Made by a program: the position numbers and the translations under genes. 64,000 nt of DNA from an uncultured bacterium (GTDB taxonomy: Bacteria > UBA8481): the NCBI GenBank assembly GCA_964499705.1, contig CAZCME010000002.1, positions 186,001 to 250,000 of the forward strand. Reading direction: 5' to 3'. Below the pieces are notes generated by a model. That model saw only the letters and a list, made by a program, of their open reading frames with translations, was not told the DNA's origin and did not search any database. Positions 1-14,978 of the stretch are shown here, piece by piece (position 1 is the stretch's first letter; every line of letters begins with the position of its first letter).

Positions 1-3000
1 CAGTCGCTGCCCGGCGGATTCCATTTGGACTGACCGGTGATGTGTCGGCCCAGAACACGCCAGGTGTTTCGGAGCATCATGGTCTCGAATTCCGAGTTGT
101 GATGGCCGGTCGTGTTGAGTTCATCTCCGCGCAGGAAGAAGAAGACGTTGAAGACAGCGCGCATCTCATCATTCGAGATCTGGTTCGCTTTCGCTCTCAG
201 GGGATTGTAGATGTACACCGATGTAGACTTGAAGATGCCGCCCGCCGAATCCGTTCCCGAGGCGCCGATACCGGAGGTGTAGCTGGACGATGTGTCATTA
301 CCCGTTCCGACCGACAAGGCCGCGATGATTCTTCCGCGAAGGCCTGCGATCTCCTGGGAGTAAGTTCCGATCGTGCCATTACCGTCGTAGTCGGCTGCAG
401 CGGGGGGATTGTCCCCGATCAACTGTCCCGTCGTGCGGGAGATGCCCCACGTGGTTCCAAAGCCGTTCCCGGTGGAAGCTGAGGTTCTCACAGGGTTCGA
501 CGTATTCCCCGTGTAATTAGCGTCGTGGCAGACGCCGCAGGCGCGCAAATCGAGTTTCCAGCTATGCCCGACATCCTCCATTGTTGCGGTTCCGGTTGCA
601 GATACTCCATCCTTCTGGGAATACATGTGGCAGGTCACGCAGGTGAACCGCACGTTCGTCTTCATGAGCGGAGCGCTGTTTCTGGTTACCAGCCTGGGTT
701 GACCGTTCTCATAAACATACGCCTGGAAGCTCAGGAGCTGACCCCATGAGTCCGCATGCGCGCCGATTCGAGGCGTATCGATAACCGCCCCGAGGGCGTT
801 CGTGTCGACGCCGTAGAAAAGGGTGTCAAAACGGATGACCGCTTCGGAGAACGTATCCATGAATGTAGCGGGTTTGAGGTTGCCGCCGTCCCCCACGATC
901 CCGAAGAACGCAGACGTGGTCACGCCATAGTGCGGCACGCTCGTTGCCTGAATGGAATCCGAACCGCTCGTCTTGATGCCGGCGCCTGCGCCGTTCGAGA
1001 GAGGACTACGTGCATAGGCTTGATAAGCCGGGTTATGGCAGTGGACGCAGGTCGCGGCCTCATACGAAACTGGATATGGCATGGATTTGTTAGTCGTCAC
1101 GGAACCCGAAATAGTGGAGACATAAGACGAGTCGCCGAAGTAGCCATACTCAAAAGCTGTTGTGCCGTTGTACATCCTGAGCGCCTTGTTGGGCGCGGGG
1201 GTGGACATGTGCGGCAAATGGCACGCCTGGCAGGTTTGACCTTCCTGCGATTGTGCGGGCCGGACGGCGACGACGGTTCCGCCGGTTAAGTTCTGCCTGG
1301 TGTCGGTGTTCGTCAGATAAGTCTGAGCCCCTAAAGCTTCATGGCATCGCATGCAACTGGTTGTCCAGTTACGCGCGACAAGTTTCCCACCATGTCCTGT
1401 ATGACCGTTGAAGACATACGTTTCATTGTTCACCTGTGAAGGCAGGATGGCGTCGAATCCGGTGCTTCTCCACTGAGCGCCATAACCGGCGCCATGGCAG
1501 GCCATGCATCGGGTCGGCTTCACGAGCGCGGTTGCTCCTCCGGCCGCCAGCAACGTAATATTCTGCACCAATGTTGCCGGTGAGTCCGATCCTAGAGTTA
1601 TGGTCAACGTCGCCGACTCACGCCCGTCCTTCATCGCCGTAATCGTGTAGCGACCCGGTGAATCCAAAAGCAAGGAGTACTTGCCGTTCGGACCTGTAAC
1701 CGTGCCTCGCGTGGTATGGTCAACCGTCACCCAAGCACCCGCGGTGTCGTCCAGATTGACGGCGCCGGTAACGAAAATGGTTCCTTGGACGAGCGCCAGG
1801 CTACTATCCGGCACCCTGTGAAGCCGATTAAGGAGATAGGAGTCATATGCCTGAGCTGCGGCTAGTGCGGCTGCAGTGCCGTCGCCGAAGCTCGTGCCCA
1901 GCGTCGAACTCGGATTATGACACGCCGACTGGCACGAGTTGGGCATTGTCTCCGAAGCGCTGGCATTGTAGAAACGCCGCGTGTTGTGCGGCCGGATCGC
2001 GCGGAACGTATGCGAGCGCACGTCGTAGTTGACAGCCGACTTCGCTGTGTAAGGCATGTGGCATGAGATACAGCGCCCCGCGCCGGTTCCCGCGGGATCG
2101 TACGAAGTATGTGTGCTCGGCATGTGATCCAGAACCGCCGCAGCCGTGGCAAATGTCTGCTTGGCTGTTCCTCCGGGGCCGTGGCATGCGAGACACGCCG
2201 AGTTGTCGTCGGCGGAGAGTTTCAACTGCCGCTTATTCCCGACAGGGCCATGCACGTCATGGCACGATCCGCAGGTCACTTCAACCGCCGCTCCCGGAGC
2301 CGTGTGTGCCGACTGGTTGAAGTCGTTCGACTGCTGGTGGTGCTGTTTCGAGGTCTTGATCTCTGCGTAACGAGTGTCCCAATAATTAGCCTCGACGCCG
2401 CCCGTGTAGAACGAGGTCAAGGTGTCGCCGGGCCTGAAAGTACGCGAGCCGTTGTACCAGAACTCAAGTGAAAACGTGTCGCTGGAAACATTGTTGGTGT
2501 CCGAGGCCTGGCCGAAGAGCTTTGCGATCGAAAGACCGCGTGAATGGCACTGGCCGCAGACGTCGTTCTTGCGCGCCGCGGAGAGTCTTGACGGATTGAC
2601 GATATTCGGATTTGACGCGTCGCCGATGGCGCCGTTCGCCCAGACGTGCGCGGAGCCGGGACCATGGCACATCTCGCAGCCGATTCCCTTTTCGAGAAAG
2701 TCCGCGCGGTGCTGCATGATGCCGGATGTGGGGCTTGCCGAGTACTCGAGCTTCAGGATGCCGGTCACCGAGTGGCATCCGATGCATTTCCGTTCCCAGG
2801 AGTGCCGCTTGTAGACGCCGGTCTCGGCGTCGGCCCAAGCCGTCAAGATCGGGGTCTTGTCCGACTTGTAGACCCAGTCCGTCGCGTTGTACACCACCCA
2901 TTCGCTGTTGACGGTGTTGAACTGGACTGGCAGAACGTAGTGCGCGTCGCCGATCTTGGTGATGTATCGCTGCTTCCACTGATAACCCATGGAGTACACG

Positions 3001-3683
3001 ACAGGGTAGGCAATATTTCCGATCGTAATGAGATAGGTGTCGCCGGATTTCGAAAGCTTCGGAGCGTTTGCTCCGTAGGATGCCCAGGCCGTCGTGATCG
3101 CCAGGTCGTATCCTGCTTCGAACTGCGCCTTGGGAATCGCGAGAATGCCAGGGGAGTCGCCCGGCGAGGAGATGCCGAAGCGGTGAGGAGAATTGATCCA
3201 GCGCGTGTGCTGCGTGGAGTGGCAGAGCTTGCACTGGCTCGATCCGACGTAGGTCTTCTCGCCGGCGGGGAGCAATTCGGTGAACCGCAGCGAAACGCTT
3301 TCGTTTTCGCCCACGTTGACGCGCAAGCCTTCGGCGACCACGGTCTTGTAACCGTTAAAGGTTGCGTAGACGTTGTAGGTCTTGTCGCCGGCTACCGCCA
3401 GCGAGAAGTTTCCGCTCGCGTCGGTCGTCGTGGAATAGTCGCCGCGGTCGGTCGCGACGCGTACGCCGGCGAGGAGCGCCTGGCCCGAGGCCATACCGAG
3501 TCCTCCAGCCGTGCCCGCGGTTCCTGAGATAGTCGCATTGGTCGCGCCGAGGCTCGCGTTCGGAGAATCCGGCGCCTTGTCATTGCCGGAGACGCATGCC
3601 ACACCAGCCGCGAAAAACAGCAGCAGCGCCGCTATCGACTGCCCAACAACTTTCCTGTCAGGGTTGATCCTCAATGTGAACAT
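1..3683 (-). CDS. Large multiheme c-type cytochrome, probable surface lipoprotein (>1,227 aa; stop codon lies just outside the window)
   Basis: Hand translation from ATG 3683 (SD AAGGAGGTG) gives MFTLRINPDRKVVGQSIAALLLFFAAGVAC (lipobox-like). The frame is open to position 1. It has 13 CxxCH (CKLCH, CIGCH, CEMCH, CGQCH, CGSCH, CLACH, CISCH, CMACH, CMRCH, CQACH, CVHCH, CVTCH, CGVCH) plus CQSACH. Two carboxypeptidase-regulatory-like beta-sandwich segments (TTTDASGNFSL; TVTGPNGKYSL). Not in the ORF track. Confidence 0.9.
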   Translation of the reverse strand, partial: MFTLRINPDRKVVGQSIAALLLFFAAGVACVSGNDKAPDSPNASLGATNATISGTAGTAGGLGMASGQALLAGVRVATDRGDYSTTTDASGNFSLAVAGDKTYNVYATFNGYKTVVAEGLRVNVGENESVSLRFTELLPAGEKTYVGSSQCKLCHSTQHTRWINSPHRFGISSPGDSPGILAIPKAQFEAGYDLAITTAWASYGANAPKLSKSGDTYLITIGNIAYPVVYSMGYQWKQRYITKIGDAHYVLPVQFNTVNSEWVVYNATDWVYKSDKTPILTAWADAETGVYKRHSWERKCIGCHSVTGILKLEYSASPTSGIMQHRADFLEKGIGCEMCHGPGSAHVWANGAIGDASNPNIVNPSRLSAARKNDVCGQCHSRGLSIAKLFGQASDTNNVSSDTFSLEFWYNGSRTFRPGDTLTSFYTGGVEANYWDTRYAEIKTSKQHHQQSNDFNQSAHTAPGAAVEVTCGSCHDVHGPVGNKRQLKLSADDNSACLACHGPGGTAKQTFATAAAVLDHMPSTHTSYDPAGTGAGRCISCHMPYTAKSAVNYDVRSHTFRAIRPHNTRRFYNASASETMPNSCQSACHNPSSTLGTSFGDGTAAALAAAQAYDSYLLNRLHRVPDSSLALVQGTIFVTGAVNLDDTAGAWVTVDHTTRGTVTGPNGKYSLLLDSPGRYTITAMKDGRESATLTITLGSDSPATLVQNITLLAAGGATALVKPTRCMACHGAGYGAQWRSTGFDAILPSQVNNETYVFNGHTGHGGKLVARNWTTSCMRCHEALGAQTYLTNTDTRQNLTGGTVVAVRPAQSQEGQTCQACHLPHMSTPAPNKALRMYNGTTAFEYGYFGDSSYVSTISGSVTTNKSMPYPVSYEAATCVHCHNPAYQAYARSPLSNGAGAGIKTSGSDSIQATSVPHYGVTTSAFFGIVGDGGNLKPATFMDTFSEAVIRFDTLFYGVDTNALGAVIDTPRIGAHADSWGQLLSFQAYVYENGQPRLVTRNSAPLMKTNVRFTCVTCHMYSQKDGVSATGTATMEDVGHSWKLDLRACGVCHDANYTGNTSNPVRTSASTGNGFGTTWGISRTTGQLIGDNPPAAADYDGNGTIGTYSQEIAGLRGRIIAALSVGTGNDTSSSYTSGIGASGTDSAGGIFKSTSVYIYNPLRAKANQISNDEMRAVFNVFFFLRGDELNTTGHHNSEFETMMLRNTWRVLGRHITGQSKWNPPGSD

Positions 3684-3732
3684 ACGCCTCACCTCCTTAG
3701 GGTCCTTCGCGTCAAGATTCCGCTCGTGCTCG

Positions 3733-4770
3733 TCATTTCGCATGACATGTCTCGCAATTGTCGCCGTTGTCCGGATGATTCAGTCCCGCTCCGATGCCCC
3801 GATGGCAGGCGCGGCAGTCCGCTCCGCTTACGTGCGTGGCGTTGGTGGGCCAGGCCGGAGCGGATTTGTGTTGCGCGCTCGTGTGGCAGGTCGCGCAGTT
3901 GTTGTTCTGGAGCGGAAGATGGCAGCTGTTGCAGTGCGTCCATCGGTTGACGCCCTTCCAGATCGATGTGTGTGAAATGGGTTGCGTGCCCAGGTGGCAC
4001 GTGGAGCAGTAATTCTCCTTGTGGCACGTGAGGCACTTTTCGCGATCGGCCTGGGCGATGACGCCGTGGCCTCGCAGGCGGAAGTGCTGGTTGTGGTTCT
4101 GCGGCTTCGAAGTCCGGTGGCAGGAGAAACACGTCTCCTCGGTGTGGCAGGTCTTGCAGTCCTGCGATCCCGCCGATGCGACGCCGCCATGCCGCATCTT
4201 CCATCCCGTCGCGTGTGAAACCGGCTGGCCCTTCGCGTCCAGTTGCGAATGGCACGAGTTGCAGGAGAGGGGATAGGAGGCTTTCACGCCGTGACAGGCA
4301 TCGAGGCAAGTCGCCATCGCGGGCCGGCTCATCTTGCCGTTCGTCGCCGTGTGGCAGGTCGCGCAATCGAGACCTTCGTGCTTCGGATGCGAGAACGTCA
4401 GGCCGAAAGAACCGGGCAGGGGATGCCGCGACGCGAGAATCTCCTCCACGTCTTTCGGCGTCACAGTCTCCAGAGCTTCCGCATGGCAGGTCTTGCAGGT
4501 TTCGATGGTCGGGATCTCGCCGCCCTTCGTGTGGCAATCCGCGCAGGCGATCCCGAGCTTGGCATGGACTTCATGCTTGAACTCCAGCTTCGGAGCGCCT
4601 TCGTCGCGGCAGGAGGACGCGGAAGAGATCGCAATGCCGAAAATCAATATCGTCGCAAATTTCGCGATGAGAAGAAATTCACCACGAAATACACGAAACA
4701 CACGAAAGGAATTCAAGAATATATTTCGTGTGCTTCGTGTGCTTCGTGGTGAAAAGAAATTAAAAATCAT
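3733..4770 (-). CDS. Multiheme cytochrome c (12 CxxCH + 1 CxxxCH); periplasmic or lipoprotein, MtrA-like position in a porin-cytochrome complex
   Basis: 13 heme motifs in about 290 aa, c3/c7-type HxxH-CxxCH units, hydrophobic signal ending ASSC. Start codon uncertain. Confidence 0.88.
   Translation of the reverse strand: MIFNFFSPRSTRSTRNIFLNSFRVFRVFRGEFLLIAKFATILIFGIAISSASSCRDEGAPKLEFKHEVHAKLGIACADCHTKGGEIPTIETCKTCHAEALETVTPKDVEEILASRHPLPGSFGLTFSHPKHEGLDCATCHTATNGKMSRPAMATCLDACHGVKASYPLSCNSCHSQLDAKGQPVSHATGWKMRHGGVASAGSQDCKTCHTEETCFSCHRTSKPQNHNQHFRLRGHGVIAQADREKCLTCHKENYCSTCHLGTQPISHTSIWKGVNRWTHCNSCHLPLQNNNCATCHTSAQHKSAPAWPTNATHVSGADCRACHRGIGAGLNHPDNGDNCETCHAK
4678..4753. repeat. Inverted repeat built from 9-nt tandem units (CACGAAAnA x3 / TTCGTG x3), inside the cytochrome N-terminus
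   Basis: ttcaccacgaaatacacgaaacacacgaaa ... tttcgtgtgcttcgtgtgcttcgtggtgaa; arms of about 30 bp. Confidence 0.9.
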
Positions 4771-6204: not shown

Positions 6205-6795
6205 TTACTTTTCGCTTCCGGCTCGGGCCGCGGCGGCCTTGTCCGGCACGTGCGGCGAATGGCATCCACGGCAATCCTGGATGTGCTTGTTGATCGTGGA
6301 TTTCCTGACGGCGGGATCCTTCTGCGAGATCGGAAGCGCGACGTGTGCTCCGCCCGGCCCATGGCAGGTTTCGCATTGAACGCCCAGAAGGTTCGGTGTC
6401 GCTTCCACGCTCGTGAATCCGCCGGGACGGCCGTAACCGGTCGTATGGCAGGCAACGCACTTTTCCTTGTCCGGAGCTTCCTTGATCCGCTCGTAGGCCT
6501 TCGCCATTCCTGTCGCGGCCCATGTCTTGTATTGAGTCAGATGGCACATCTTGCATTTTTCCGCGCCGACATAGGCGGGTGTCGTCTCCGCGGCCGGCGC
6601 GGCAGGTTCTTCCGCGTAAGCAGGGGAGGTGAAGAGGAGATAAACGCAGGCGGCCATCATGAGGGCCATGACAATGATGAGAATGCTGTCCCACGCGGCC
6701 GAGCGACACTCATCCGTCGTCGATCCGCCGTCGTAGCTTTCACTCGACGGATTGTAAAATGGAGTCACACTTCTCGGACTGAGCCTCATGATCAA
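6205..6795 (-). CDS. Small tetraheme cytochrome c (c554-like domain)
   Basis: YVGAEKCKMCH, CVACH, VQCETCHGPG, CRGCH; hydrophobic segment ending in an AYA cleavage site. Confidence 0.85.
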   Translation of the reverse strand: MIMRLSPRSVTPFYNPSSESYDGGSTTDECRSAAWDSILIIVMALMMAACVYLLFTSPAYAEEPAAPAAETTPAYVGAEKCKMCHLTQYKTWAATGMAKAYERIKEAPDKEKCVACHTTGYGRPGGFTSVEATPNLLGVQCETCHGPGGAHVALPISQKDPAVRKSTINKHIQDCRGCHSPHVPDKAAAARAGSEK

Positions 6796-7400
6796 CCTCC
6801 TTGCTCTTCCTTGCTGAGCTGTTCAACCGCTCGCTTGATGATCTCCGCATTGGGTGCATCCGGAGCCACCGCGAGATATCTTGTCCAGTAACTGACCGCG
6901 CGTTTCTTGTCGCCGAGATTGTGGAAGGCGAGCAGCCCGGCCCGATAAAGAGCCTCGCTGTCCTTCGGTTTCTCCACGAGCGCCTTTTCGAATGCCGCGA
7001 AGGCTTTCTCGGACTCGGCGGACTTCGCGAGCGCGATGCCGGCTTCCACGAGCTGCTTCGCGTCCGTGGAAAGCATGACCGCCTGGGAAAGGCGTTCGAC
7101 GCCCTGCTGCGGATTGCCCATGTCGAGATCGCACGCGCCGAGAGCGATGAGCGCTTCGATATCCTTCGGATTCTTCGCAAGGCGCGCTTCAAGCTCGGGG
7201 CGCTCCTTCGCGCAATCCATTCCGCACGCGTCGCCTTCAGCGGGCATGCCGTGAGCTTCATCCTGAGGTGCTGGTTGCGACGCGGGGGAGGCAACGACCG
7301 GGGCCGCGCCGGCTTCTGTCTTCGGAATCAACTGCCCTGCTCCGACTCCAAGAACGAATCCGACGACTACTCCGACTGCGATATATTTCCTGTTGTTCAT
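6792..7400 (-). CDS. Membrane-anchored TPR protein (CcmI/NrfG-like)
   Basis: N-terminal TM; TPR repeats (LAKNPKDIEALIALG...; EKPKDSEALYRAG...); next to ccmF/H. Confidence 0.75.
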   Translation of the reverse strand: MNNRKYIAVGVVVGFVLGVGAGQLIPKTEAGAAPVVASPASQPAPQDEAHGMPAEGDACGMDCAKERPELEARLAKNPKDIEALIALGACDLDMGNPQQGVERLSQAVMLSTDAKQLVEAGIALAKSAESEKAFAAFEKALVEKPKDSEALYRAGLLAFHNLGDKKRAVSYWTRYLAVAPDAPNAEIIKRAVEQLSKEEQGG

Positions 7401-7784: not shown

Positions 7785-10306
7785 GGGAGTCGCTCCTTCA
7801 TGGCGGCTTCCACAAGCGCGCGCTCATCGCCGGTTGGAGGCGCCGTATCCGTTGTTGAGGCGCGACGACCCGCGAGATTAGTCCAGAGTAGAAGCGCGGC
7901 TCCGACGATCAAGGCGAAGGGGAGAATCCAGACGGTCAGATGAAATCCCTTCGACGGCGGAGCCGCAAGGATCTGCAATCCGAACTTCGCCGACATGGCC
8001 TTCTTGACCGCTTCGTCATTCATGCCTTCCGCGCGGAATGCCGCGATCTGCGGCAGCAGCTCGCCGCGACCGCTGCAATGCGCATGGTCGCAGACCTGCA
8101 GGATCATCCCGCACCCACAGTTGCAGATGAACGAAGCGGAGACGGGATCGCGATTGCCGATGGCGTCGGAATACTCCCCACGCGTGGGTTCCGCGCGTGC
8201 CGGCAGTCCGGCGAGGAGAACCGCCAGCATCAAGGCGCCCGCGACCGACCGGATGGAGGAAGTGTCGCGAGCGCCATGGATGGCGCAGGAGCGACCGACC
8301 GCCGCGATTTCTCCGGTCGCGCTCTTCGCGTTCGCCCACGCGAAAGGAAGTTTCCACGGGAGAAGCGCAAGGATCGATCCGATGATCGCCAGGAGCGATC
8401 CGTTCCAGACGAACGATACGAGCGGGTGGACCATCATCCTCATGACCGCGTGCTCGCCGTCCGGCTCCACGAAGATCAGGTAGAGATCCTCGAGCAGCCG
8501 CGACCGGATCGCCACTTCGCTCGATCGTTGCTCCCGTTCGGTGCCCGCGAAGTACACGGAGATCGAGGGATCTTCCTTCCCGAGCACGGTTCCATTCTTG
8601 GAGACGACGATGTCGGCCGTCAGGCTCACGCTATGCTCGTCGTTCGATTCCCTGTAGCCGTTATAGAGAATGGAATACTCCCCGAGATCGAGCTTTTCAC
8701 CGGGCGCCATGTGCTTCTCGATCTCGGTCGAGAAGGCGTTGCCGGCCAATCCCACGAGGAGAACGGCCATTCCGAAATGGACGAGAAAGCCGCCGTATCG
8801 GCGGCGATTCCGGTCCATCAGCAGGAAGATGGATCGCGCGATCGATTCGTGCGTGCTCTTCTGACGCGCCCGGGCGCAGATGTAGATGTCCATGAAAATG
8901 GATGCGACGACGAACGCCGCCATCGCGAAGGCGTTCACGGCCAGCCAGTGGCTCGCGCCCAGCATCCACGAAACGCCCGCCGTGATGAAGCCGGCGAGGA
9001 GCGGAAGTCCCAGGTTCTTCTTCAGGCTTTCCGATGACGCGCGGCGCCAGGCGATCATTGGTCCGGCGCCCGTCAGGAGAAAGAGAGCCAGGCCCAGCGG
9101 CAGGATGACGCGGTTGAAGTATGGCGCGGAGACCGTGACCTTGTCGCCCGTCGCGGCTTCGGAGAGGATCGGATAGACCGTTCCCCACATCACCGCTCCG
9201 CAGATCCCCAGCAGCACGAGATTCTGAAAGAGGAAGAACGCTTCCCGGGACATCAGCGAGTCGATCGCGTATCGCGACTCCAGTTCCTTCCAACGGCCCA
9301 GGAAGAAGATCCCACCCAGGATCGCCCACCCGGCCATGAACCAGAGAAAGACGTCGCCGACGCCCGACTGCGCGAAGGAGTGCACCGACTGCAGGACGCC
9401 GCTTCTTGTCAGAAACGTTCCGAAGATGGAGAGAAGGAACGTGAGCATGACGAGGAAGATGTTCCATCGCCGCAGCATCCCGCGCCGCTCCTCGATCATC
9501 ACGGAGTGCAGAAACGCGGTTCCCGTGAGCCACGGCATGAGGCTAGCGTTCTCGACCGGATCCCACGCCCAGTAACCGCCCCATCCCAGCTCGACATACG
9601 CCCATTTCGCTCCGGAGATGATCCCAAGCGAAAGAAACGCCCAGGAGAGGATTGTCCAGACGCGCGTCGTCCGGATCCAGTCGGGCGTGAGATGGCACGA
9701 GGCCAGCGCCGCCATCGCGAAGGCGAACGGGATCGCGAAGCCGACGTAGCCGAGATACAGGAGGGGAGGATGGATGATCATGCCGAAATTCTGGAGCATG
9801 GGATTCAGGCCGTTGCCGTCGGGTATGTGCTGCCCCATCGCATCGGGAAACTTCTGCGACAGGAGCTCGAACGGTTCGGCGACGAAGACGAGGAGCACGA
9901 AGAAGAAGAGCTGGATCGAGGCGAGCACCCAGATGACGTGCGGCACGAGGAGCGGCTGGCGATCCCGGTTCTGTCGGACCGCGATGACGCTCATGACGCC
10001 CAGGACGATCAACCAGAAGAGGAGCGACCCGGACTGTCCGGCCCAGAGGGCCGACGCGGCGTAGATGTCGGGTAGCTCATTGGAAGTGTATTCCCAGACA
10101 TACGAAAGCCTGTAGTCGCGATCGAGGAGAAACTTCAGAAGCATGCCACCGGCCGCGATGGCCGCCACGGTCGCCACATGCAGCCAGCGCTCCGCGGATT
10201 CGCCGCTGCGGGGATGCTGGCGAAAGCCGGCGTAAAGGCCGAAACCGACGCCCGCCGCGGAGGCCAGCAGTCCCAGGCGGAGCAGCCAGATGCCGATCTC
10301 GATCAC
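7781..10306 (-). CDS. ccmF: Cytochrome c heme lyase CcmF/NrfE fused to a C-terminal CcmH/NrfF-like domain
   Basis: WWD motif WGGYWAWDPVENASL, HPPLLYLGY, LTRSGVLQSVHSFA; C-terminal ICNCGC...C...C and FGLQILAAPPSKGFHLTVWILP (CcmH-like). Confidence 0.92.
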   Translation of the reverse strand: MIEIGIWLLRLGLLASAAGVGFGLYAGFRQHPRSGESAERWLHVATVAAIAAGGMLLKFLLDRDYRLSYVWEYTSNELPDIYAASALWAGQSGSLLFWLIVLGVMSVIAVRQNRDRQPLLVPHVIWVLASIQLFFFVLLVFVAEPFELLSQKFPDAMGQHIPDGNGLNPMLQNFGMIIHPPLLYLGYVGFAIPFAFAMAALASCHLTPDWIRTTRVWTILSWAFLSLGIISGAKWAYVELGWGGYWAWDPVENASLMPWLTGTAFLHSVMIEERRGMLRRWNIFLVMLTFLLSIFGTFLTRSGVLQSVHSFAQSGVGDVFLWFMAGWAILGGIFFLGRWKELESRYAIDSLMSREAFFLFQNLVLLGICGAVMWGTVYPILSEAATGDKVTVSAPYFNRVILPLGLALFLLTGAGPMIAWRRASSESLKKNLGLPLLAGFITAGVSWMLGASHWLAVNAFAMAAFVVASIFMDIYICARARQKSTHESIARSIFLLMDRNRRRYGGFLVHFGMAVLLVGLAGNAFSTEIEKHMAPGEKLDLGEYSILYNGYRESNDEHSVSLTADIVVSKNGTVLGKEDPSISVYFAGTEREQRSSEVAIRSRLLEDLYLIFVEPDGEHAVMRMMVHPLVSFVWNGSLLAIIGSILALLPWKLPFAWANAKSATGEIAAVGRSCAIHGARDTSSIRSVAGALMLAVLLAGLPARAEPTRGEYSDAIGNRDPVSASFICNCGCGMILQVCDHAHCSGRGELLPQIAAFRAEGMNDEAVKKAMSAKFGLQILAAPPSKGFHLTVWILPFALIVGAALLLWTNLAGRRASTTDTAPPTGDERALVEAAMKERLP

Positions 10307-10309
10307 GGC

Positions 10310-10636
10310 TTACTTGTCCTCCCCGTCGAAAACCGTGTCGGCCCACGAGAGAGCTGCCATCATGGAAGGGAATCCCCGGGTCGTCGCGGAGAGGATGATG
10401 GCATGGCGGAGTTCTTCCCGCGACAATCCCGCATCCACGCCGCGTCGCACGTGCGCTTTGACCGCTGTTTCAAGGCCGGCTCCGACCGCAACGCCGAGGC
10501 GAACCAGCGCGCGTTCGCTTTCGGAGAGCGGCCCGGTATTCGCGAGAGCATCGCTGAATCTCTCGTAGGCCTGGAAGACGTCCTTGTATTCCTTCTTCAC
10601 TTTCTCATACCGCTTCGGCGGTGTTGACTTTTTCAT
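10310..10636 (-). CDS. Carboxymuconolactone decarboxylase (CMD/AhpD-like) family protein, no CxxC
   Basis: GPLSESERALVRLGVAVG...HVRRGVDAGLSREELRHAI...GFP; SD AAGGAG. Confidence 0.85.
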   Translation of the reverse strand: MKKSTPPKRYEKVKKEYKDVFQAYERFSDALANTGPLSESERALVRLGVAVGAGLETAVKAHVRRGVDAGLSREELRHAIILSATTRGFPSMMAALSWADTVFDGEDK

Positions 10637-10667: not shown

Positions 10668-10684
10668 TGCACGCCGCGTGCCAA
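10668..10684 (-). promoter_or_regulatory. Sigma54 promoter for the CMD-ccmFH operon
   Basis: Minus strand TTGGCACGCGGCGTGCA, near-consensus TGGCACG-N4-(T)TGC. Confidence 0.85.
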
Positions 10685-10792: not shown

Positions 10793-10840
10793 GGAAGCGG
10801 TATCTCATCCCGGAAAACTCATCCTTCATCCTTTAACCGA

Positions 10841-10856: not shown

Positions 10857-10870
10857 CTTCATCACACGTC

Positions 10871-13066
10871 ATGCAGGATCCGCTCTCATGGATGCCGATT
10901 CGCTACAAGCTCTCGGCGTCCTACATCATCATCTGTCTCCTCGCGTTCGGAGTCGGCGGCTACCTCATCTCCGTTTCCGCCCGCGCGTCGCTCGAGTCGG
11001 AGATCAAGGAGCGACTTCGCTGGCAGGCCGAGGCAAAGGCGCATGCCCTGGAGCGATCACTCGACATGCTGGGACGCCGAACCGAGGATTTCGCATCCGA
11101 CGGTTACATCAGGAGGGAGATGGCGGCGGCTCTTCAGAAAGGGTCGGCGTCGCGGGAGGACGCAATTCGAGCGCTCCGGTTACACCTCCGTGAGAACAAG
11201 CTGCCGCTGGTGGCGGATTTCATCGACCTCCGGTTGTATGACGGGACGGGCGAGCTCGTGGCCGGGGTTCAGCCCGAGCTGACCGGCGAGGCCATGGTCT
11301 TGGACCCGCGGTCGACGGACCTGAGATACGGGAGCATGCGGGGCATGCCCGGGCGTGGCAGGATCTTCGCGATCGAGACGCCGCTCTGGAATCTTGAGCG
11401 GTCAGCGCGTCTCGGCACTCTCGTATCCATCGTGGCCGCGGAGCCGTGGGCGACGCGGATCCTTTCGAGCGCGCCGGATGAAGATGTCCGCATCGCGCTC
11501 GAGGATCGATCGGGTTCGAGCATCGCGATTGCTTCTCCTTCCTCCGCGCGTCCCGCGGAAGTTCCTCCGGCGCTCGCCGAATGGCTGAAGTATGCATACG
11601 TGATCCCGATGAACGGCTGGACGCTCTCCGTGGAGATGAACTCCCGACCCGCCCTGGAACCGGTATCGGCGCTCCAGAGCCGGTTTCTCGCAGCCGCGAT
11701 CCTTACCGTCGCGGCGACGGTGACGCTTCTCTTCTTTCCGATGCGCTTCCTGGTGCGTCCTCTTTCACGGATGCAGACCGCGGCACGGCGCATCGCGGCC
11801 GGAGATTTTTCCGCGCGGGTGGAGATCGCATCCACGGACGAAGTGGGCGATCTCGCCAGCTCCTTCAACGTCATGGCCGGCGCCGTGCAGGAGCGTACGT
11901 TGCGGCTCGAAAAGACCGCGGAGGATCTCTCCAAGCGCGGGCACGAACTCTCCGTGGAGAAAGACCGCCTGCGCACCGTGGTGCAGTCCATGAAGGACGG
12001 ACTCGTTCTGCTGGACGAGTCCGGGAAGATCGAGATCGCAAATGAAGCGGCCGCGCCCGTCGTCGCGTATCTCTCAGGCCAGGTGGAGAAGATCGCGCCG
12101 CGCCGCTGTCCTTCCGGCCGGTCCCGCACGCTGGAATGCGATGCCTGTCTCTCCGATCCCTCCGGCGCCGCGCGGACATGCGCGCTCGATATCGGATCCT
12201 CCGTCTTCGAGATTCACGCGACGCGCCTTCCGTCGCCGGGCGGGCGCGGGGGCAGGGTTCTCGTCTCGCGCGATGTCACGCAATACGTCACTCTCGACGA
12301 GCGACAGGCGCACCAGGAGAGGCTCGCCGTTCTCGGGGAAGTGGCCGCCGTCATCGCGCACGAGATGAATAATCCTCTGGCGGCGATATCGATGTACACG
12401 CAGATGATGGAGCAGGAGATGCCCGAGGAGACGCCCTACCGCGAGCATATCGAGGTGATCCGGAGAAATACGGAAGTGTGCAAGGGGACGATCCGCGGGC
12501 TCCTCGATTACGCGACGGCGGCGGAGCCGGACATCCTGGAGCTGGACCTTCACGAAATGGCGCGCGAGGCGGTGCTCTTCCTCCGGCCGCTCATGAAGAA
12601 AGCGCGGGTCGAGGCCGTCTGGAACCTGGACGCGAAGAATCCGGTTGTCGCCGGCGTGGAGACGCATCTCCGGCACGTCTTCGCCAATCTCTTCATCAAC
12701 GCCGTGCACGCGATGCAACGGACCGGCGGAACGCTCACGATTTCCACGCGGGAACCGGAGAACGGAGAGGGAGTGGTGGTGGACGTGTCCGATTCCGGGC
12801 CGGGAATTCCGGAACCGATTCGCGAACGGATCTTCGACGCGTTCTTCACGACGAAGCCGTCCGACACCGGAACAGGCCTGGGGTTGTCCACGTCCCGGAG
12901 AATCGTCGAATCGCTCGGAGGTTCTCTCACGCTTGAAAACGCGGAATCGGGACGAACGACATTCCGCATCGCCCTCCCACGGCGACCCGTGATGCGGTCG
13001 CCACGACCCTTGCCGGAAATCCTCATGGCGGGCCGGAACAAGAACGTCGCGGAGCAGACCTCATGA
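10871..13066 (+). CDS. Membrane sensor histidine kinase (TM-periplasmic-TM-HAMP-PAS-HisKA-HATPase)
   Basis: H-box IAHEMNNPL, N-box NLFINAVHAM, DSGPGI, FFTTK, GTGLGL; 4-Cys cluster in the PAS region. Start moved to ATG 10871, downstream of the promoter. Confidence 0.92.
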   Translation: MQDPLSWMPIRYKLSASYIIICLLAFGVGGYLISVSARASLESEIKERLRWQAEAKAHALERSLDMLGRRTEDFASDGYIRREMAAALQKGSASREDAIRALRLHLRENKLPLVADFIDLRLYDGTGELVAGVQPELTGEAMVLDPRSTDLRYGSMRGMPGRGRIFAIETPLWNLERSARLGTLVSIVAAEPWATRILSSAPDEDVRIALEDRSGSSIAIASPSSARPAEVPPALAEWLKYAYVIPMNGWTLSVEMNSRPALEPVSALQSRFLAAAILTVAATVTLLFFPMRFLVRPLSRMQTAARRIAAGDFSARVEIASTDEVGDLASSFNVMAGAVQERTLRLEKTAEDLSKRGHELSVEKDRLRTVVQSMKDGLVLLDESGKIEIANEAAAPVVAYLSGQVEKIAPRRCPSGRSRTLECDACLSDPSGAARTCALDIGSSVFEIHATRLPSPGGRGGRVLVSRDVTQYVTLDERQAHQERLAVLGEVAAVIAHEMNNPLAAISMYTQMMEQEMPEETPYREHIEVIRRNTEVCKGTIRGLLDYATAAEPDILELDLHEMAREAVLFLRPLMKKARVEAVWNLDAKNPVVAGVETHLRHVFANLFINAVHAMQRTGGTLTISTREPENGEGVVVDVSDSGPGIPEPIRERIFDAFFTTKPSDTGTGLGLSTSRRIVESLGGSLTLENAESGRTTFRIALPRRPVMRSPRPLPEILMAGRNKNVAEQTS

Positions 13067-14529
13067 CAATTTCCCGGGATCGCTTAGCGGCATCGGCATC
13101 GTACGCGGGTTGCCTCGACGGCCTTCGCGTGCTTGTCGTCGACGATGAGGCCGACGTCCGCAACGGAGTCCGAAAGATCGTCGAATCGACCGGCGCTCGC
13201 GTATCCGTGGCGTCATCGGGTGAGGAGGCTCTGGAACATATCGGGAAGAACGAGACGAAACTCGTCATCAGCGATATCCGGATGCGGGGAATGAGCGGCG
13301 TGGAGCTCCTGAAGGCGATTCTCGCCAGAAAACCGGAGACCGCCGTCGTCCTCATCACAGGTTACGGCACGATCGCCCAGGCCGTGGAATGCCTCCAGAT
13401 GGGCGCGCGGCATTTTCTGACGAAACCATTCGACAACGACGAATTGATCCTGCAGGTCATCAGGATCGGACGTTTGCTGCTGGCGCATCATTTGAGGGAC
13501 GAAGTGGTCCCGCAGGAACGTCGACCGGAGGAGACGGGACTGGCGACGCGCGATCCGCGGATGAGGGACGTGGTGGCGCTCGTCGAACAGGCGTCCGCGA
13601 CGCGCGTGCCGGTCCTGATCCAGGGCGAGAGCGGGACCGGTAAGGAACTTGTGGCGCGCGCGATTCACGCGGGAAGTCCCGTGGCGGCGAAGCGGTTTCT
13701 CGCCGTCAACTGCGCGGCGCTGCCGGATTCGCTCATCGAGTCCGAGCTCTTCGGGTACAGAAGAGGCGCGTTCACCGGCGCGCATCGGGATCAACAGGGG
13801 CTCTTTGTCCAGGCTCAGGGAGGAAGCGTCTTTCTCGACGAGATCGCGTCGATGTCGCTGGCGTTCCAGGGCAAGCTGCTACGTGTCCTGCAGGAGCGCG
13901 TCGTGCGTCCGCTCGGTGCGTCCCACGATGAGAAGGCCGACTTCCGCCTGATCTGCGCGACGAATCGCGACCTGAAGGAGATGACGGAGCAGGGATCCTT
14001 CCGGGAGGATCTCTACTACAGGATCTGCGTCGTCGTGATCTCGATTCCTCCGCTCCGGGATCGCGCCGTGGACATCCCGGACCTGGCGATGACACTGCTT
14101 AATCGCGCGGCGCGCGAATGCCTCGCGGAGCCGGCCGCGTGCCCGGATATCTCGGACGCGGCCATGGAGGAACTCGTGGCGCATCCCTGGCCGGGTAATG
14201 TCCGCGAGCTGGAGAACACGATCCAGCGCGCCCTGGTGACCTGCCGAGGCCCGAAAATTCTGCCGCATCATATTAATCTCCGGAGCGGCTCCCGGTGGCC
14301 CGAGATGATGGAAGCGCAGGCCTACGGCGAGGCGAAGGAGCAGGCCGTCGAACGATTCCAGCGCCGGTTCATCGCGCGCGCGCTGGAACGGACGGGCGGC
14401 AATATATCGCGCGCCGCCGAGGAGTGCGGACTGACGCGCGCCGCGATTCAGAAGATCATGAAAACCTTGAACCTGGAGCGGAATGATTTCCGGGAGCGGA
14501 AGAACGAAAGAAAGGATGGAATGGAATGA
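13063..14529 (+). CDS. Sigma54-dependent response regulator (NtrC family)
   Basis: Receiver domain (VVDDE, ISDIRM), GESGTGKE, GAFTGA, FREDLYYR, WPGNVRELEN, Fis-type HTH. Confidence 0.95.
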   Translation: MTISRDRLAASASYAGCLDGLRVLVVDDEADVRNGVRKIVESTGARVSVASSGEEALEHIGKNETKLVISDIRMRGMSGVELLKAILARKPETAVVLITGYGTIAQAVECLQMGARHFLTKPFDNDELILQVIRIGRLLLAHHLRDEVVPQERRPEETGLATRDPRMRDVVALVEQASATRVPVLIQGESGTGKELVARAIHAGSPVAAKRFLAVNCAALPDSLIESELFGYRRGAFTGAHRDQQGLFVQAQGGSVFLDEIASMSLAFQGKLLRVLQERVVRPLGASHDEKADFRLICATNRDLKEMTEQGSFREDLYYRICVVVISIPPLRDRAVDIPDLAMTLLNRAARECLAEPAACPDISDAAMEELVAHPWPGNVRELENTIQRALVTCRGPKILPHHINLRSGSRWPEMMEAQAYGEAKEQAVERFQRRFIARALERTGGNISRAAEECGLTRAAIQKIMKTLNLERNDFRERKNERKDGME

Positions 14530-14978
14530 CGATCACGGATTTGCTGTTCGGAGAACATGGAGTCTTTTATGCCATGTTCAATCACATCGAGGAAAGGCTG
14601 GAGGAGGCGTCGCTGGATGAAATACAGATTCTCACGGCGATCCTGACCTCCTCGCTCGAGTCGCATGCGCAACTGGAGGACGACGCGCTCTTCAAGGTCC
14701 TGGAGCCTCACATCGGCGTCATGGGCCCGATCGGAGTCATGCGCATGGAGCATGACGAGATCGTGAAGTCGCTGGTCGCGATCCTGCAGCAGACGGATCG
14801 CGATGCAGCCGCGAAGCTGATGCGACACGCCATAGAAGTGGCGCGCTCGCATTTCTCCAAGGAGGAGAACATTCTCTTTCCCATGGCCGTCAATGTGCTC
14901 GGCGAGGACGAATTGGCGAGCCTCACATCGAGATGGACCGCGCTGAGACTCTCCGGTGCCCAGGCGTGCTCCTGCTGA
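14526..14978 (+). CDS. Hemerythrin/HHE cation-binding domain protein
   Basis: EH..., HAQLEDDALF, MRMEHDEI, HFSKEENILFPMA. Confidence 0.88.
   Translation: MTITDLLFGEHGVFYAMFNHIEERLEEASLDEIQILTAILTSSLESHAQLEDDALFKVLEPHIGVMGPIGVMRMEHDEIVKSLVAILQQTDRDAAAKLMRHAIEVARSHFSKEENILFPMAVNVLGEDELASLTSRWTALRLSGAQACSC

Follow-up and report, generated by a model that had tools for sequence, protein, structure and literature searches.

A probable porin–cytochrome conduit encoded with cytochrome maturation and regulatory genes in an uncultured bacterium

Organization of the gene cluster

The DNA analysed here (64,000 nucleotides, hereafter the window) carries a cluster of multiheme cytochrome genes at one end (Table 1). 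Five minus-strand genes that run from position 7400 to position 3 overlap at their ends or lie 5 nt apart. They encode, in this order, a TPR protein, a c554-like tetraheme cytochrome, a predicted β-barrel protein, a 13-heme cytochrome (MHC13) and a 14-heme cytochrome (MHC14). The TPR gene opens this conduit operon and its stop overlaps the start of the tetraheme gene. Also 5' of the conduit genes are genes for a CcmI-like protein, a fused CcmF–CcmH protein (CcmF-H) and a CMD family protein, and divergent from these, on the plus strand, are the genes for a kinase, a GAFTGA-bearing sigma54 activator and a hemerythrin-domain protein. Every gene named by the first-pass annotation was found on the strand given there.

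The same annotation counted about 31 heme motifs in four co-oriented genes, and the inventory agrees: 29 CXXCH and two CX3CH motifs occur over 1790 aa. The window has 39 further ORFs (18,677 aa), and CXXCH is absent from all of them. Among the genes elsewhere in the window are heterotroph-type ones, namely GH94, LacI regulators and a phosphotransacetylase.

Table 1. Genes, heme sites and candidate promoter elements of the cluster (positions in the window).
Feature	Position	Strand	Characteristics
MHC14, 14-heme two-module lipoprotein cytochrome, putative cell-surface terminal cytochrome	3..3743	-	13 CXXCH + CQSACH
CX3CH heme site CQSACH of MHC14	1917..1934	-	motif and orthologue alignment
MHC13, 13-heme cytochrome, putative heme wire in barrel	3733..4770	-	12 CXXCH + CLDACH; conserved lipobox Cys
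CX3CH heme site CLDACH of MHC13, clade marker	4291..4308	-	motif and homologue alignment
Outer-membrane β-barrel (porin)	4760..6199	-	479 aa; signal peptide; C-terminal Phe
c554-like tetraheme cytochrome, putative periplasmic electron shuttle	6205..6795	-	4 CXXCH
Membrane-anchored TPR protein, like CcmI/NrfG periplasmic domain	6792..7400	-	TPR Pfam matches
Sigma54-type -24/-12-like site GGGAACGGTTCTTGCT	7432..7447	-	two mismatches; match count not above chance
Small membrane protein, CcmI N-terminus-like	7524..7784	-	86 aa; weak TIGR03142 match
Fused CcmF/NrfE-type heme lyase with C-terminal CcmH/NrfF-like domain (CcmF-H)	7781..10306	-	Pfam Cytochrom_C_asm, CcmF_C, CcmH
Cys-rich CNCGCG motif of CcmH-like domain	8108..8125	-	comparison of window and L003
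CMD (AhpD-like fold) family protein, first gene of lyase operon	10310..10636	-	CMD Pfam E 2.4e-15
Sigma54-type -24/-12 site TGGCACGCGGCGTGCA	10668..10683	-	≤1 mismatch
Membrane sensor histidine kinase	10871..13066	+	HAMP, HisKA, HATPase_c; ORF opens 10667, likely start Met69 at 10871
Sigma54-dependent response regulator (enhancer-binding protein)	13063..14529	+	Response_reg, Sigma54_activat (E 1.2e-66), HTH_8
Hemerythrin-domain protein	14526..14978	+	Hemerythrin Pfam E 4e-16; start overlaps activator stop

The porin and the 13-heme cytochrome

The first-pass annotation had made its reading depend on a β-barrel fold for the porin. AlphaFold2 predicts a 22-strand barrel for this protein (mean pLDDT 76.5), so the reading survives on this point. 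Searching with the model in Foldseek returned generic large outer-membrane barrels with a probability of 1.0. The best match was the FimD usher (TMq 0.48-0.49), and MtrB was not among the matches listed. Sequence searches gave no family above cut-off in Pfam and NCBIfam, the MtrB_PioB Pfam family included, and no match at E ≤ 10 among PDB sequences; no curated model or solved structure in these three databases covers the porin. A profile search nevertheless retrieved 681 cluster representatives, and the C-terminal Phe is found in 142 of 147 family representatives.

MHC13 matches the cytochrome c7, class III and c3 families of Pfam and has 904 homologues, most of them ~340 aa long. Its closest solved relatives are GSU1996 (3ov0, E 1.2e-12) and ActA-type chains of ACIII, all of them partial matches. 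The structure model of MHC13 is poor (pLDDT 68.6, pTM 0.44), and a fold search with it returned weak partial ActA matches alone and no match at E ≤ 0.001, so a rod-like MtrA-type shape is not supported by the model.

On this sequence evidence, the porin and MHC13 are members of large, widespread and unnamed families; we found no experiments in the literature on any member of either the porin or the cytochrome families. The earlier statement that the system is not Mtr is corroborated by the missing MtrB_PioB match and by NCBIfam scores for DmsE/MtrA and OmcA/MtrC that fall far under the cut-offs. Its description as an undescribed conduit family does not hold for families of this size, and Pcc pairs were already described in 2014 (PMC4245776). 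In that account, the pairs of Anaeromyxobacter and Kuenenia combine a porin with a 338-344-aa cytochrome bearing 12-14 hemes, while Pcc porins are predicted to have 18-22 strands and their periplasmic cytochromes 5-14 hemes (PMC4245776). The pair described here agrees with those of Anaeromyxobacter and Kuenenia in size and heme number, the two features by which we liken them.

One heme site of MHC13 is of the CX3CH type. This motif is found at the site in all 15 closest homologues and in none of 102 relatives with thirteen CXXCH motifs, and three other hits vary. In a tree built from 117 of 120 hits, the 15 CX3CH sequences form one clade (support 100), which indicates that the motif is strictly clade-specific. 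Cys54 is invariant in all 48 aligned sequences and preceded by the consensus AGC; among 120 homologues a lipobox is recognized in 91 by a loose pattern and in 53 by a strict one.

Conservation of the gene order

Four related loci (L001-L004) were confirmed out of 15 pattern matches. The order tetraheme, porin, MHC13, MHC14 is identical in L001, L002 and L003, and this core is thus present in three of the four, one of which is a Candidatus Hydrogenedentes MAG. Tetraheme orthologues with 51-60% identity lie directly 5' of the porin in these three loci. In L004, a 2.9-kb Desulfobacterales contig, a 24%-identical porin adjoins a 10-heme relative of MHC13. Protein searches further yielded six porin/MHC13 pairs on equal-sized contigs (12004, 18713, 7639, 55056, 5201 and 9687), which fits the two genes being neighbours. 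The architecture of porin, cytochrome and lipoprotein cytochrome that was proposed for this region is therefore present, with synteny kept in L001-L003.

It is highly improbable that these are mere neighbours with no shared complex, in which case the barrel would be an ordinary porin and the cytochromes would carry electrons within the periplasm. The generic porin-like fold matches of the barrel would suit such an arrangement, but gene order and overlapping ends are kept at 45-60% identity and across widely differing base composition (third-position G+C of ~0.4 in L002 and ~0.85 in L001 and L003), and the divergent Desulfobacterales porin still adjoins its cytochrome.

In the relatives, the 14-heme gene is followed by more genes for very large cytochromes and by inner-membrane genes of the quinol-dehydrogenase type. 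L001 encodes an NrfH-like protein with 26 hemes and a fusion of a 14-heme protein with cytochrome b561. L002 encodes two proteins with 22 and 4 hemes, respectively, and DsrO-/DsrP-like proteins of the NrfC/NrfD type, and L003 encodes 12- and 33-heme NrfH-like proteins. The cluster studied here likewise runs on past position 1 of the window. With the 14-heme gene at the window edge and the clusters of the relatives continuing beyond this gene, the window offers no basis for judging the conduit self-contained, as it had been called.

The 14-heme and tetraheme cytochromes

MHC14 is 1247 aa long if translation starts at the first ATG and 1227 aa long if it starts at Met21 (position 3683). It is cut by the window edge and, judged from three orthologues, lacks one residue and the stop. 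The protein has two modules, each with an Ig-like domain and heme. This two-module build distinguishes the clade, as do the CX3CH site of MHC13 and the maturation genes 5' of the core. Pfam recognizes two CarboxypepD_reg domains together with c554, c7 and paired-CXXCH matches, and residues 741-845 pass the cut-off for MtrC/MtrF domain II/IV (51.8 bits, cut-off 30), a point of likeness to surface reductases. Cys50, past the signal-peptide core, is invariant in four of four orthologues; by alignment, both large cytochromes thus carry a conserved lipobox Cys. The CX3CH of MHC14 is retained in three of the four orthologues and replaced by CATCH in L001.

The tetraheme cytochrome belongs to the Cytochrome_C554 family (E 2.7e-17) and matches OcwA (E 6.4e-13) and cytochrome c554 (E 3.5e-12) in the PDB. 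OcwA is also the best solved relative of MHC14 (6i5b, E 3.1e-8, residues 311-488 only). It is described as the cell-surface terminal reductase of Thermincola (PMC6703420).

Since MHC14 and the tetraheme cytochrome match the c554/NrfA/OcwA lineage, MHC14 could instead catalyse the conversion of a soluble or colloidal compound, for example nitrite, hydroxylamine, sulfite, tetrathionate or selenite, with the barrel as substrate passage or anchor. The Geobacter extHIJKL selenite/tellurite cluster would be comparable, as its porin-like ExtI is linked to selenite and tellurite reduction (PMC5877670). We consider this improbable. The OcwA match spans a small part of the 1247 residues, there is no CXXCK motif, and the scores obtained with all NCBIfam models for enzymes and decahemes lie far under the cut-offs. 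The conserved pairing of a barrel with a wire-like 13-heme protein, and the neighbouring giant cytochromes of the relatives, suit conduction better than catalysis.

Cytochrome maturation genes

Maturation genes lie 5' of the core in all three sources with upstream sequence. L003 resembles the window in having CcmF-H, CcmI-like and TPR genes, whereas L001 has ResB, CcsA and HemA. The heme lyase reported in the cluster is indeed of the CcmF/NrfE family and is seen in both the window and L003, where the orthologue is 65% identical. CcmF-H has a WWD motif at residue 242 and reaches 408 bits with the NCBIfam NrfE model (cut-off 927) and 394 bits with CcmF (cut-off 569). The pattern IC[NQ]CGCGM...CDHA.C is kept in the CcmH-like domain between the window and L003. 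CcmH carries CXXC where the fusion has an unusual CxCxC motif.

The 86-aa protein scores under the cut-off of TIGR03142 (E 2e-4, 21.6 bits, cut-off 29.3) and has a 47%-identical counterpart directly after CcmF-H in L003. The TPR protein matches TPR_CcmH_CycH below cut-off (E 1.2e-5), and homologues lie 5' of the core in L001 and, in two copies, in L003. The CMD protein contains zero cysteines and has no counterpart in L001-L004. Neither ccmABCDE nor a second ccmF was seen in the 64-kb window.

With less certainty, CcmF-H and the CcmI-like and TPR proteins could work together as an accessory lyase of System I, akin to NrfEFG/SirEFG, that matures the clade-specific CX3CH sites or copes with a high heme load. 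There is a precedent in SirE, a CcmF-like synthetase of the sir cluster on which SirA, a protein with an atypical heme site, depends (PMC6976685). The boldest interpretation of the cluster is a lyase dedicated to CX3CH, and its specificity is doubtful because L001 keeps the CX3CH of MHC13 with System II genes and not CcmF-H.

The chances are about even that the three genes are instead the general cytochrome c maturation genes of the organism, located beside its largest cytochrome cluster. That L001 has System II genes and HemA at the same place and still keeps the CX3CH of MHC13 suggests that the need for heme attachment is a general one, the E. coli Ccm system is able to mature CX3CH variants, and standard Ccm handles both CX3CH and CX4CH. 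Against this, ccmABCDE do not adjoin the CcmF-H gene in the window, the CcmF score and the CxCxC motif set the protein apart, CX3CH is confined to one clade, and NrfEFG/SirEFG accessory lyases sit apart with their substrates (PMC6976685).

Regulatory genes

The kinase has two hydrophobic segments that flank ~235 aa without a Pfam domain, and the GAFTGA motif of the response regulator is at residue 235. Two candidate sigma54 sites precede the minus-strand operons. GGGAACGGTTCTTGCT lies 31 nt 5' of the TPR start, and TGGCACGCGGCGTGCA, beside the activator gene, lies 31 nt 5' of the CMD start codon and is the sole match to the consensus with ≤1 mismatch in 64 kb. The number of pattern matches in the window equals chance expectation (17 against 17.7 expected; with ≤1 mismatch, 1 against 1.12). 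No match within two mismatches occurs at equivalent places in L001-L003, and L001 has 3-mismatch matches alone, 5' of the tetraheme gene. No sigma70-like promoter was found in positions 1-15800, against 3.1 expected.

The proposed sigma54 redox-sensing switch is thus upheld in part. The GAFTGA activator and the placement of the two sites favour a sigma54 switch, while the chance-level count and the lack of a comparable site in L002 and L003 weigh against it. Redox sensing had the hemerythrin gene as its sole basis, and this gene has no counterpart in the four related loci. We speculate, less certainly, that the kinase and activator turn on both operons from -24/-12 promoters.

Proposed electron path

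Taken together, the region probably encodes a Pcc-type outer-membrane porin–cytochrome conduit for extracellular electron transfer, with a maturation module and a two-component sigma54-type regulator. Electrons would exit the quinol pool via inner-membrane modules encoded outside the window; the relatives have NrfH-like, CbcL-like or NrfCD-like modules of this kind after the 14-heme gene. The soluble tetraheme cytochrome may ferry the electrons through the periplasm, and the hemes of MHC13, placed in the lumen of the barrel as MtrA is in MtrB, could then conduct them over the outer membrane. At the cell surface, the two modules of the lipoprotein MHC14 may receive them and pass them on to an acceptor that is insoluble or macromolecular, for example Fe(III)/Mn(IV) oxides, humics or a partner cell.

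Electrons could also take this wire in the opposite direction, and the sequence contains nothing that fixes which way they flow. If reversed, the conduit would be no reductive outlet and would draw electrons from outside the cell, for instance from Fe(II) minerals, reduced humics or a syntrophic partner, which is the role proposed for MtoAB, PioAB and PCC3. Porin–cytochrome conduits are described as working both ways (PMC4245776, PMC5566968), and Cyc2-type iron-oxidation candidates are reported in Hydrogenedentota MAGs (PMC9769843). We regard uptake as unlikely, given that the nearest solved relative of MHC14 is a terminal reductase (PMC6703420) and that the relatives encode NrfH-, CbcL- and NrfCD-like modules. 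The heterotroph-type genes of the window, where no carbon-fixation gene was seen in 64 kb, also speak against it, and none of these points is decisive. NrfH-, CbcL- and NrfCD-like modules are usually read as quinol oxidising.

We conclude that the conduit represents an uncharacterised branch within a known type of system and not an isolated new family, and that the cluster most likely carries respiratory electrons over the outer membrane.

Gene content of the locus

ORF calls with translations, together with Pfam and NCBIfam scans, recovered every gene named by the first-pass annotation, which was made from the sequence alone. A c554-like tetraheme cytochrome, a porin and two multiheme cytochromes with 13 and 14 heme motifs (MHC13 and MHC14) follow a gene for a membrane-anchored tetratricopeptide repeat (TPR) protein. 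Because these five genes overlap or lie 5 nt apart, they are predicted to form one operon. A 123-nt gap separates the TPR gene from an upstream group that encodes a CMD-family protein, a fused CcmF-CcmH heme lyase (CcmF-H) and an 86-aa CcmI-like protein. A kinase, a response-regulator-type activator and a hemerythrin are encoded divergently. All 29 CXXCH motifs of the window fall within the three cytochromes (1790 aa); its other 39 ORFs, 18,677 aa in total, are free of them. A 649-aa reading of the porin ORF was rejected, since its 5' part covers tetraheme coding sequence in a different frame and the orthologues begin near Met171.

The other 49 kb of the window carry ordinary chromosomal genes, including a GH94 glycoside hydrolase, LacI regulators, flagellin, a large NAD-glutamate dehydrogenase, fumarase and aspartate kinase. 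An Rfam scan of positions 1-64000 found no family up to its gathering score. Two adjacent DUF6259 proteins, one of 1721 aa, are encoded beside LacI-type regulators and the GH94 phosphorylase, and this region may be a glycan-utilization locus. Two long ORFs there share about 730 nt, so one start is mis-called. Three long ORFs are without a Pfam match. Two of these have a third-position G+C of about 0.62-0.64, compared with 0.70-0.84 in most other listed ORFs, so the frame called may not be truly coding.

Features of the window and of related loci (coordinates refer to the sequence named in the first column)
Sequence	Feature	Position	Strand	Remark
Window	CMD-family protein	10636-10310	minus	heads lyase operon
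Window	Fused CcmF/NrfE-type heme lyase with CcmH-like C-terminal domain	10306-7781	minus
Window	CxCxC...C...C cluster of CcmH-like domain	8108-8125
Window	86-aa protein	7784-7524	minus	weak CcmI N-terminus likeness
Window	Membrane-anchored TPR protein	7400-6792	minus
Window	c554-like tetraheme cytochrome	6795-6205	minus
Window	479-aa porin	6199-4760	minus	signal peptide
Window	MHC13	4770-3733	minus	12 CXXCH + CLDACH
Window	MHC14	3743-3	minus	13 CXXCH + CQSACH
Window	649-aa ORF	4760-6709		rejected reading
Window	HAMP/HisKA kinase, then receiver-AAA+-HTH activator, then hemerythrin		plus, divergent	stops/starts overlapping
Window	HAMP-HisKA linker of kinase	12000-12300		residues ~480-515
Window	sigma54-type site near CMD gene	10668-10683	minus
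Window	sigma54-type site near TPR gene	7432-7447	minus
Window	Adjacent DUF6259 proteins	16611-23934
Window	GH94 phosphorylase	24981-27758
Window	ORFs sharing ~730 nt	15757-17337; 16611-21776
Window	Long ORF without Pfam match	28715-30136		lower third-position G+C
Window	Long ORF without Pfam match	30948-32660
Window	Long ORF without Pfam match	55299-57995		lower third-position G+C
L001	sigma54-type activator	175-1670		aligns in two frames (247-753; 873-1670)
L001	ResB, CcsA, HemA	4395-9005
L001	Genes 3' of MHC14	16521-21177		26-heme NrfH-like cytochrome; 14-heme cytochrome fused to cytochrome b561 domain
L002	Genes 3' of MHC14	7799-12743		22-heme and 4-heme cytochromes, then DsrO-/DsrP-like NrfC/NrfD-type proteins
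L003	Genes 3' of MHC14	16800-21163		12- and 33-heme NrfH-like cytochromes

The porin and its family

The porin is predicted to be an outer-membrane barrel, as the first-pass annotation supposed. An AlphaFold2 model built from an alignment of 14 homologues has 22 beta strands (mean pLDDT 76.5). Foldseek matches it to large outer-membrane barrels with a probability of 1.0; the top match is the FimD usher (TMq 0.48-0.49), and MtrB is absent from the matches listed. A C-terminal phenylalanine, the usual signature of outer-membrane proteins, is present in 142 of the 147 representatives of the wider family. The porin reaches no Pfam or NCBIfam family above cut-off. At E ≤ 0.01 its sole Pfam match is BBP2_2 (E = 9.6e-4, below the cut-off of that model), with no MtrB/PioB (PF11854), and the family profile finds nothing at E ≤ 10 in a PDB set that includes MtrB.

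A word-indexed protein search identified 14 relatives of the porin, 13 of them at 38-100% identity, and a repeat with a 96-sequence alignment returned the identical 14 proteins. When 1.84 billion cluster representatives were searched in full by HMMER with the porin profile, 681 matched at E ≤ 1e-3, and 225 did so at E ≤ 1e-30; only four exceed 380 bits, and the next scores 246. For MHC13, 904 homologues were recovered at E ≤ 1e-5, with lengths of about 340 aa in nearly all cases. Given these numbers, the porin/13-heme pair is, judged by homology, a close-knit clade within a large and widespread family and not an isolated one. This wider family has no Pfam or NCBIfam model. The few named members of the MHC13 family come from Planctomycetes and Hydrogenedentes metagenome-assembled genomes (MAGs), and for the porin and MHC13 families together the named members are from Planctomycetes, Omnitrophota (one Candidatus Omnitrophica) and Hydrogenedentes MAGs. 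The Omnitrophica name was the only one obtained from two sets of ten proteins looked up by cluster, whose other entries were hypothetical proteins or blank. Neighbors of the porin in a language-model atlas are clusters from Nitrospirota, Myxococcota and Acidobacteriota, which we treat as a lead only. A tblastn search of 72,556 plasmids with the porin and MHC13 gave no match. One complex prediction run for the porin (residues 30-479) and MHC13 (residues 55-345) gave scores of 0.29, 0.44 and 0.25, to be read against a mark of 0.32, and we take it as evidence neither for nor against binding.

The multiheme cytochromes

MHC13 carries a CX3CH motif at its fourth heme site. Among the best 120 of the 904 homologues, this motif occurs in all 15 of the closest (at least 49% identity), 102 have 13 CXXCH motifs and no CX3CH, and the last three have 23, 17 or 12 CXXCH motifs. 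A maximum likelihood tree of 117 of these proteins (three were left out for lengths below 290 or above 420 aa) places the 15 CX3CH bearers in one clade with a support of 100.

The cysteine that follows the signal-peptide core of MHC13 is invariant in 48 of 48 aligned homologues and is preceded by the consensus AGC. A lipobox is found in 91 of the best 120 homologues by a loose definition and in 53 by a strict one. Because of the invariant cysteine and the frequent lipobox, this 'inner' cytochrome is probably also a lipoprotein. The structural model of MHC13 is of low confidence (pLDDT 68.6, pTM 0.44), and a PDB fold search with it found nothing at E ≤ 0.001, only weak partial matches to ActA of ACIII at E of about 1e-2. 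By sequence, the nearest solved relative is GSU1996, and the decaheme DmsE/MtrA model TIGR03508 does not match MHC13.

MHC14 lacks only its last residue in the window, as judged from its orthologues. It consists of two modules, each with an Ig-like CarboxypepD_reg domain followed by hemes, and its atlas neighbors (again a lead only) are proteins of 620-770 aa with the same domain set. Its lipobox cysteine is invariant, and its single CX3CH is kept in three of four orthologues. Residues 741-845 pass the Pfam cut-off for MtrC/MtrF domain II/IV, the sole Mtr-type model passed; the NCBIfam scores are 50.1 for TIGR03508 (cut-off 192.2) and 30.6 for TIGR03507 (OmcA/MtrC; cut-off 209.3). The nearest solved relative is OcwA (PDB: 6i5b, E = 3.1e-8), which aligns with about 180 of the 1247 residues. 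The tetraheme cytochrome is closest to OcwA (E = 6.4e-13) and cytochrome c554 (E = 3.5e-12). Since all matches to solved structures are partial, these comparisons show no full-length orthology of the cytochromes to a characterized complex or enzyme, the finding that would have refuted the first-pass proposal.

Related loci

A genome scan gave 15 pattern matches, among which four loci were confirmed and form the basis for synteny: two from MAGs (L001 and L003), one (L002) from a MAG of Candidatus Hydrogenedentes, and one (L004) on a Desulfobacterales contig of 2.9 kb. In tblastn comparisons the order tetraheme-porin-MHC13-MHC14 is the same in the first three, at 45-60% identity, and the porin and MHC13 genes are neighbors in all four. 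On the Desulfobacterales contig, a 24%-identical porin adjoins a 10-heme relative of MHC13. For six further pairs of porin and MHC13 homologues, both members are reported on contigs of equal size. This syntenic core and the adjoining lyase gene bear out the proposal that the locus encodes a porin-cytochrome conduit with an attached lyase.

The operon runs on past MHC14 in all three full loci, where giant cytochromes (26, 22 and 33 heme motifs in L001, L002 and L003) and inner-membrane modules follow, the latter comprising NrfH-like N-termini, the cytochrome b561 fusion and the DsrO/DsrP-like proteins. Together they resemble the inner-membrane and periplasmic sections of a pathway that spans the envelope. 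Counterparts would fall beyond window position 1, so the cluster is cut by the window edge, and the description of the conduit as self-contained was too strong.

Cytochrome-maturation genes

Wherever sequence 5' of the core is available (the window, L001 and L003), it contains cytochrome-maturation genes; the L002 contig begins just before the tetraheme gene. The window and L003 share the CcmF-H fusion (65% identical), a CcmI-like protein and TPR proteins. The fusion matches Cytochrom_C_asm (E = 5.6e-39) and CcmF_C (E = 2.8e-56) and has a WWD motif at residue 242. Its NCBIfam scores are below the trusted cut-offs (408 against 927 and 394 against 569), and it is therefore a divergent member of the CcmF/NrfE family. 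A CcmH domain is found at residues 757-832 (Pfam, E = 6.6e-11). Where canonical CcmH has CXXC, the fusion has CxCxC, within a pattern (IC[NQ]CGCGM...CDHA.C) that is conserved between the window and L003. The TPR protein weakly matches TPR_CcmH_CycH and the 86-aa protein weakly matches the N-terminus of CcmI; the CcmH-like domain and both partners are all kept in L003. No other ccm genes occur in the 64-kb window. The CMD/AhpD-fold protein at the head of the group has no cysteine and therefore cannot be a thiol peroxidase or reductase, and it has no counterpart in the related loci.

NrfEFG is an accessory System I heme lyase of E. coli. SirEFG is that of Shewanella (PMC6976685). As in these systems, a CcmF paralogue, a CcmH/NrfF-like part and TPR chaperone-like parts are encoded here beside cytochromes with non-CXXCH sites, namely the CX3CH of MHC13 (15 of 15 clade members) and of MHC14 (three of four orthologues). 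The differences from these systems are that CcmF and the CcmH-like domain form a single protein, that one or two TPR proteins divide the CcmI-like function with a small membrane protein, and that the putative atypical site is CX3CH, not CXXCK or CX12NKGCH. By analogy with SirEFG and NrfEFG, the module could be dedicated to the CX3CH sites, which we consider rather unlikely. L001 encodes ResB, CcsA and HemA in place of the fusion; ResB and CcsA (the latter at 256 bits, NCBIfam cut-off 187) belong to System II, and HemA is a glutamyl-tRNA reductase. Its MHC13 nevertheless keeps the CX3CH, which argues for a general role of the maturation genes in heme attachment. The available part of PMC9084895 holds no statement on CX3CH maturation.

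We tentatively, and with more doubt than belief, sketch a joint reading in which the clade changed the MHC13 site, or also that of MHC14, to CX3CH, recruited its own substrate-specific System I lyase and uses the conduit as the main respiratory outlet of a Hydrogenedentes-type organism. The recruited lyase would, equally doubtfully, consist of the fused CcmF-CcmH, whose thiol motif is CxCxC, together with TPR chaperones and a CcmI in split form. If true, it would add a third class to the dedicated heme lyases, after NrfEFG (CXXCK) and SirEFG (CX12NKGCH), and would be the first tied to CX3CH and to a conduit for extracellular electron transfer.

Regulation

The activator has receiver, AAA+ and HTH domains with GAFTGA at residue 235, and its gene adjoins that of the kinase. 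The site 31 nt before the CMD start, beside the activator, is the sole match in the 64 kb to the sigma54 consensus with at most one mismatch; a second site, with two mismatches, lies 31 nt before the TPR start. However, sigma54 pattern matches are as many in the window as chance gives, and the equivalent places in L001-L003 have no match within two mismatches. When the scan of the relatives was loosened, the only candidates lay upstream of the tetraheme gene in L001, with three mismatches. A sigma70-like promoter pattern is absent from window positions 1-15800, where 3.1 matches are expected. Near the L001 cluster a kinase and a sigma54-type activator are also encoded, but the identity is only about 33%; neither the hemerythrin nor the CMD gene has a counterpart in L001-L004. 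Of the sigma54 redox switch first proposed, sigma54 control of the locus is plausible, and redox sensing is a putative role.

In the kinase, the stretch that joins HAMP to HisKA, where no domain is predicted, has four cysteines (C-x10-C-x2-C-x10-C) that could form a metal or redox site. The L001 activator, encoded upstream of the cluster there, aligns in two frames, which suggests a frameshift or an assembly error.

Comparison with published conduits

The closest published description is that of the Pcc clusters of Anaeromyxobacter and Kuenenia, and the likeness is one of size and heme number only. According to Shi et al. (2014; PMC4245776), each of these clusters has two genes, one for a porin and one for a cytochrome of 338-344 aa that carries 12-14 hemes. 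Pcc porins have 18-22 predicted strands, and Pcc periplasmic cytochromes have 5-14 hemes and co-evolve with the porin. Here too the porin is smaller than MtrB (479 aa, 22 strands), and the adjoining cytochrome has 345 aa and 13 hemes. Many Pcc clusters continue with an outer-membrane cytochrome that bears atypical CX3-15CH motifs (same paper); MHC14, a predicted lipoprotein with one CX3CH, resembles it. Unlike the Anaeromyxobacter and Kuenenia clusters, which have no outer-membrane cytochrome, the window has this 14-heme two-module lipoprotein and a tetraheme cytochrome. A CX3CH also occurs here in the 'periplasmic' component, for which that paper states that no atypical heme motif was known. 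The invariant lipobox cysteine suggests that MHC13 is a lipoprotein, whereas PMC4245776 calls this component periplasmic. With 681 porin and 904 MHC13 homologues, and Pcc pairs of the same size and heme content in that source, the proposal of an undescribed family went too far. We conclude that the locus is of a porin-cytochrome type already known, in a poorly known lineage. Its distinctive oddity is the clade-specific CX3CH site with maturation genes alongside.

OmaB-OmbB-OmcB and ExtABCD of Geobacter sulfurreducens likewise encode a porin, an inner cytochrome and one or more lipoprotein outer cytochromes side by side. They share c7/c3-type cytochromes with the locus, GSU1996 being the nearest solved relative of MHC13. 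OmaB has 8 and OmcB 12 hemes (PMC4245776), compared with 13 and 14 here, and the OrfR/OrfS regulators described there contrast with the maturation genes and sigma54 two-component system attached here. No NCBIfam Geobacter model is reached; the GSU2203 decaheme model scores 55 bits against a cut-off of 325.

MtrCAB, MtoAB and PioAB, of which MtrCAB is from Shewanella, share with the locus the inferred principle of a heme wire in a barrel that leads to a surface lipoprotein cytochrome, and MHC14 passes the cut-off for the MtrC/MtrF domain. The porin has no MtrB_PioB Pfam or PDB sequence match and 22 predicted strands, whereas solved MtrB has 26. MtrB was predicted with 28 strands (PMC4245776). 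Membership of the Mtr group was rejected: there is no MtrB/PioB, MHC13 is no DmsE/MtrA decaheme cytochrome, TIGR03507 and TIGR03508 are far below cut-off and the heme numbers are 13 and 14. OcwA of Thermincola potens, built on a c554 scaffold, acts as a terminal reductase at the cell surface (PMC6703420), but it has nine hemes and no porin, belongs to a Gram-positive cell and matches only part of MHC14.

PCC3 and PCC4 (He et al. 2017; PMC5566968) and a Verrucomicrobia cluster (PMC5615132) are candidates by a porin gene adjoining multiheme genes. In PCC3 the median heme number is 34 for extracellular and 21 for periplasmic cytochromes, and a 5-helix inner-membrane protein that bears two WX3HX13H motifs is conserved (PMC5566968). 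It was rejected on the 14 and 13 hemes found here and on the absence of such a membrane protein within 3-14978. The PCC4 porin is accompanied by three cytochromes, with 4, 5 and 10 hemes, all of which are periplasmic, and by no extracellular one (same source), which does not fit 4, 13 and 14 hemes with a predicted lipoprotein as the 14-heme protein. The Verrucomicrobia clusters have an 8-heme periplasmic cytochrome (PMC5615132) and were rejected against 4 + 13 + 14 here. Recent surveys add many more sequence-divergent porin-multiheme clusters in MAGs (bioRxiv preprints), so another such cluster is unsurprising in itself. Our literature search found no paper describing the present cluster and none proposing such a conduit for Hydrogenedentes. 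Hydrogenedent* with porin, cytochrome and heme occurred together only in PMC9769843, which concerns Cyc2 homologues.

Proposed electron path and implications

We infer a wire of the Pcc/Mtr kind. A quinol dehydrogenase encoded outside the window would feed the tetraheme shuttle, which would reduce MHC13 seated in the 22-strand barrel, and MHC13 would pass electrons to MHC14 on the cell surface.

Through porin-cytochrome conduits, bacteria can use minerals, humic matter, electrodes or partner cells for respiration. To our knowledge, the Mtr complex is the only one of them to be solved. The family here comprises hundreds of cluster representatives without a Pfam or NCBIfam model, and one characterized member would annotate many genomes. 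The strict link between CX3CH and its clade, with maturation genes alongside, provides a system in which the maturation of non-canonical heme sites can be tested directly, which also bears on expressing the conduit in other hosts. As far as we know, Hydrogenedentes-type organisms are known only from metagenomes and enrichments, and the locus would bring extracellular electron transfer into the proposed physiology of this candidate phylum.
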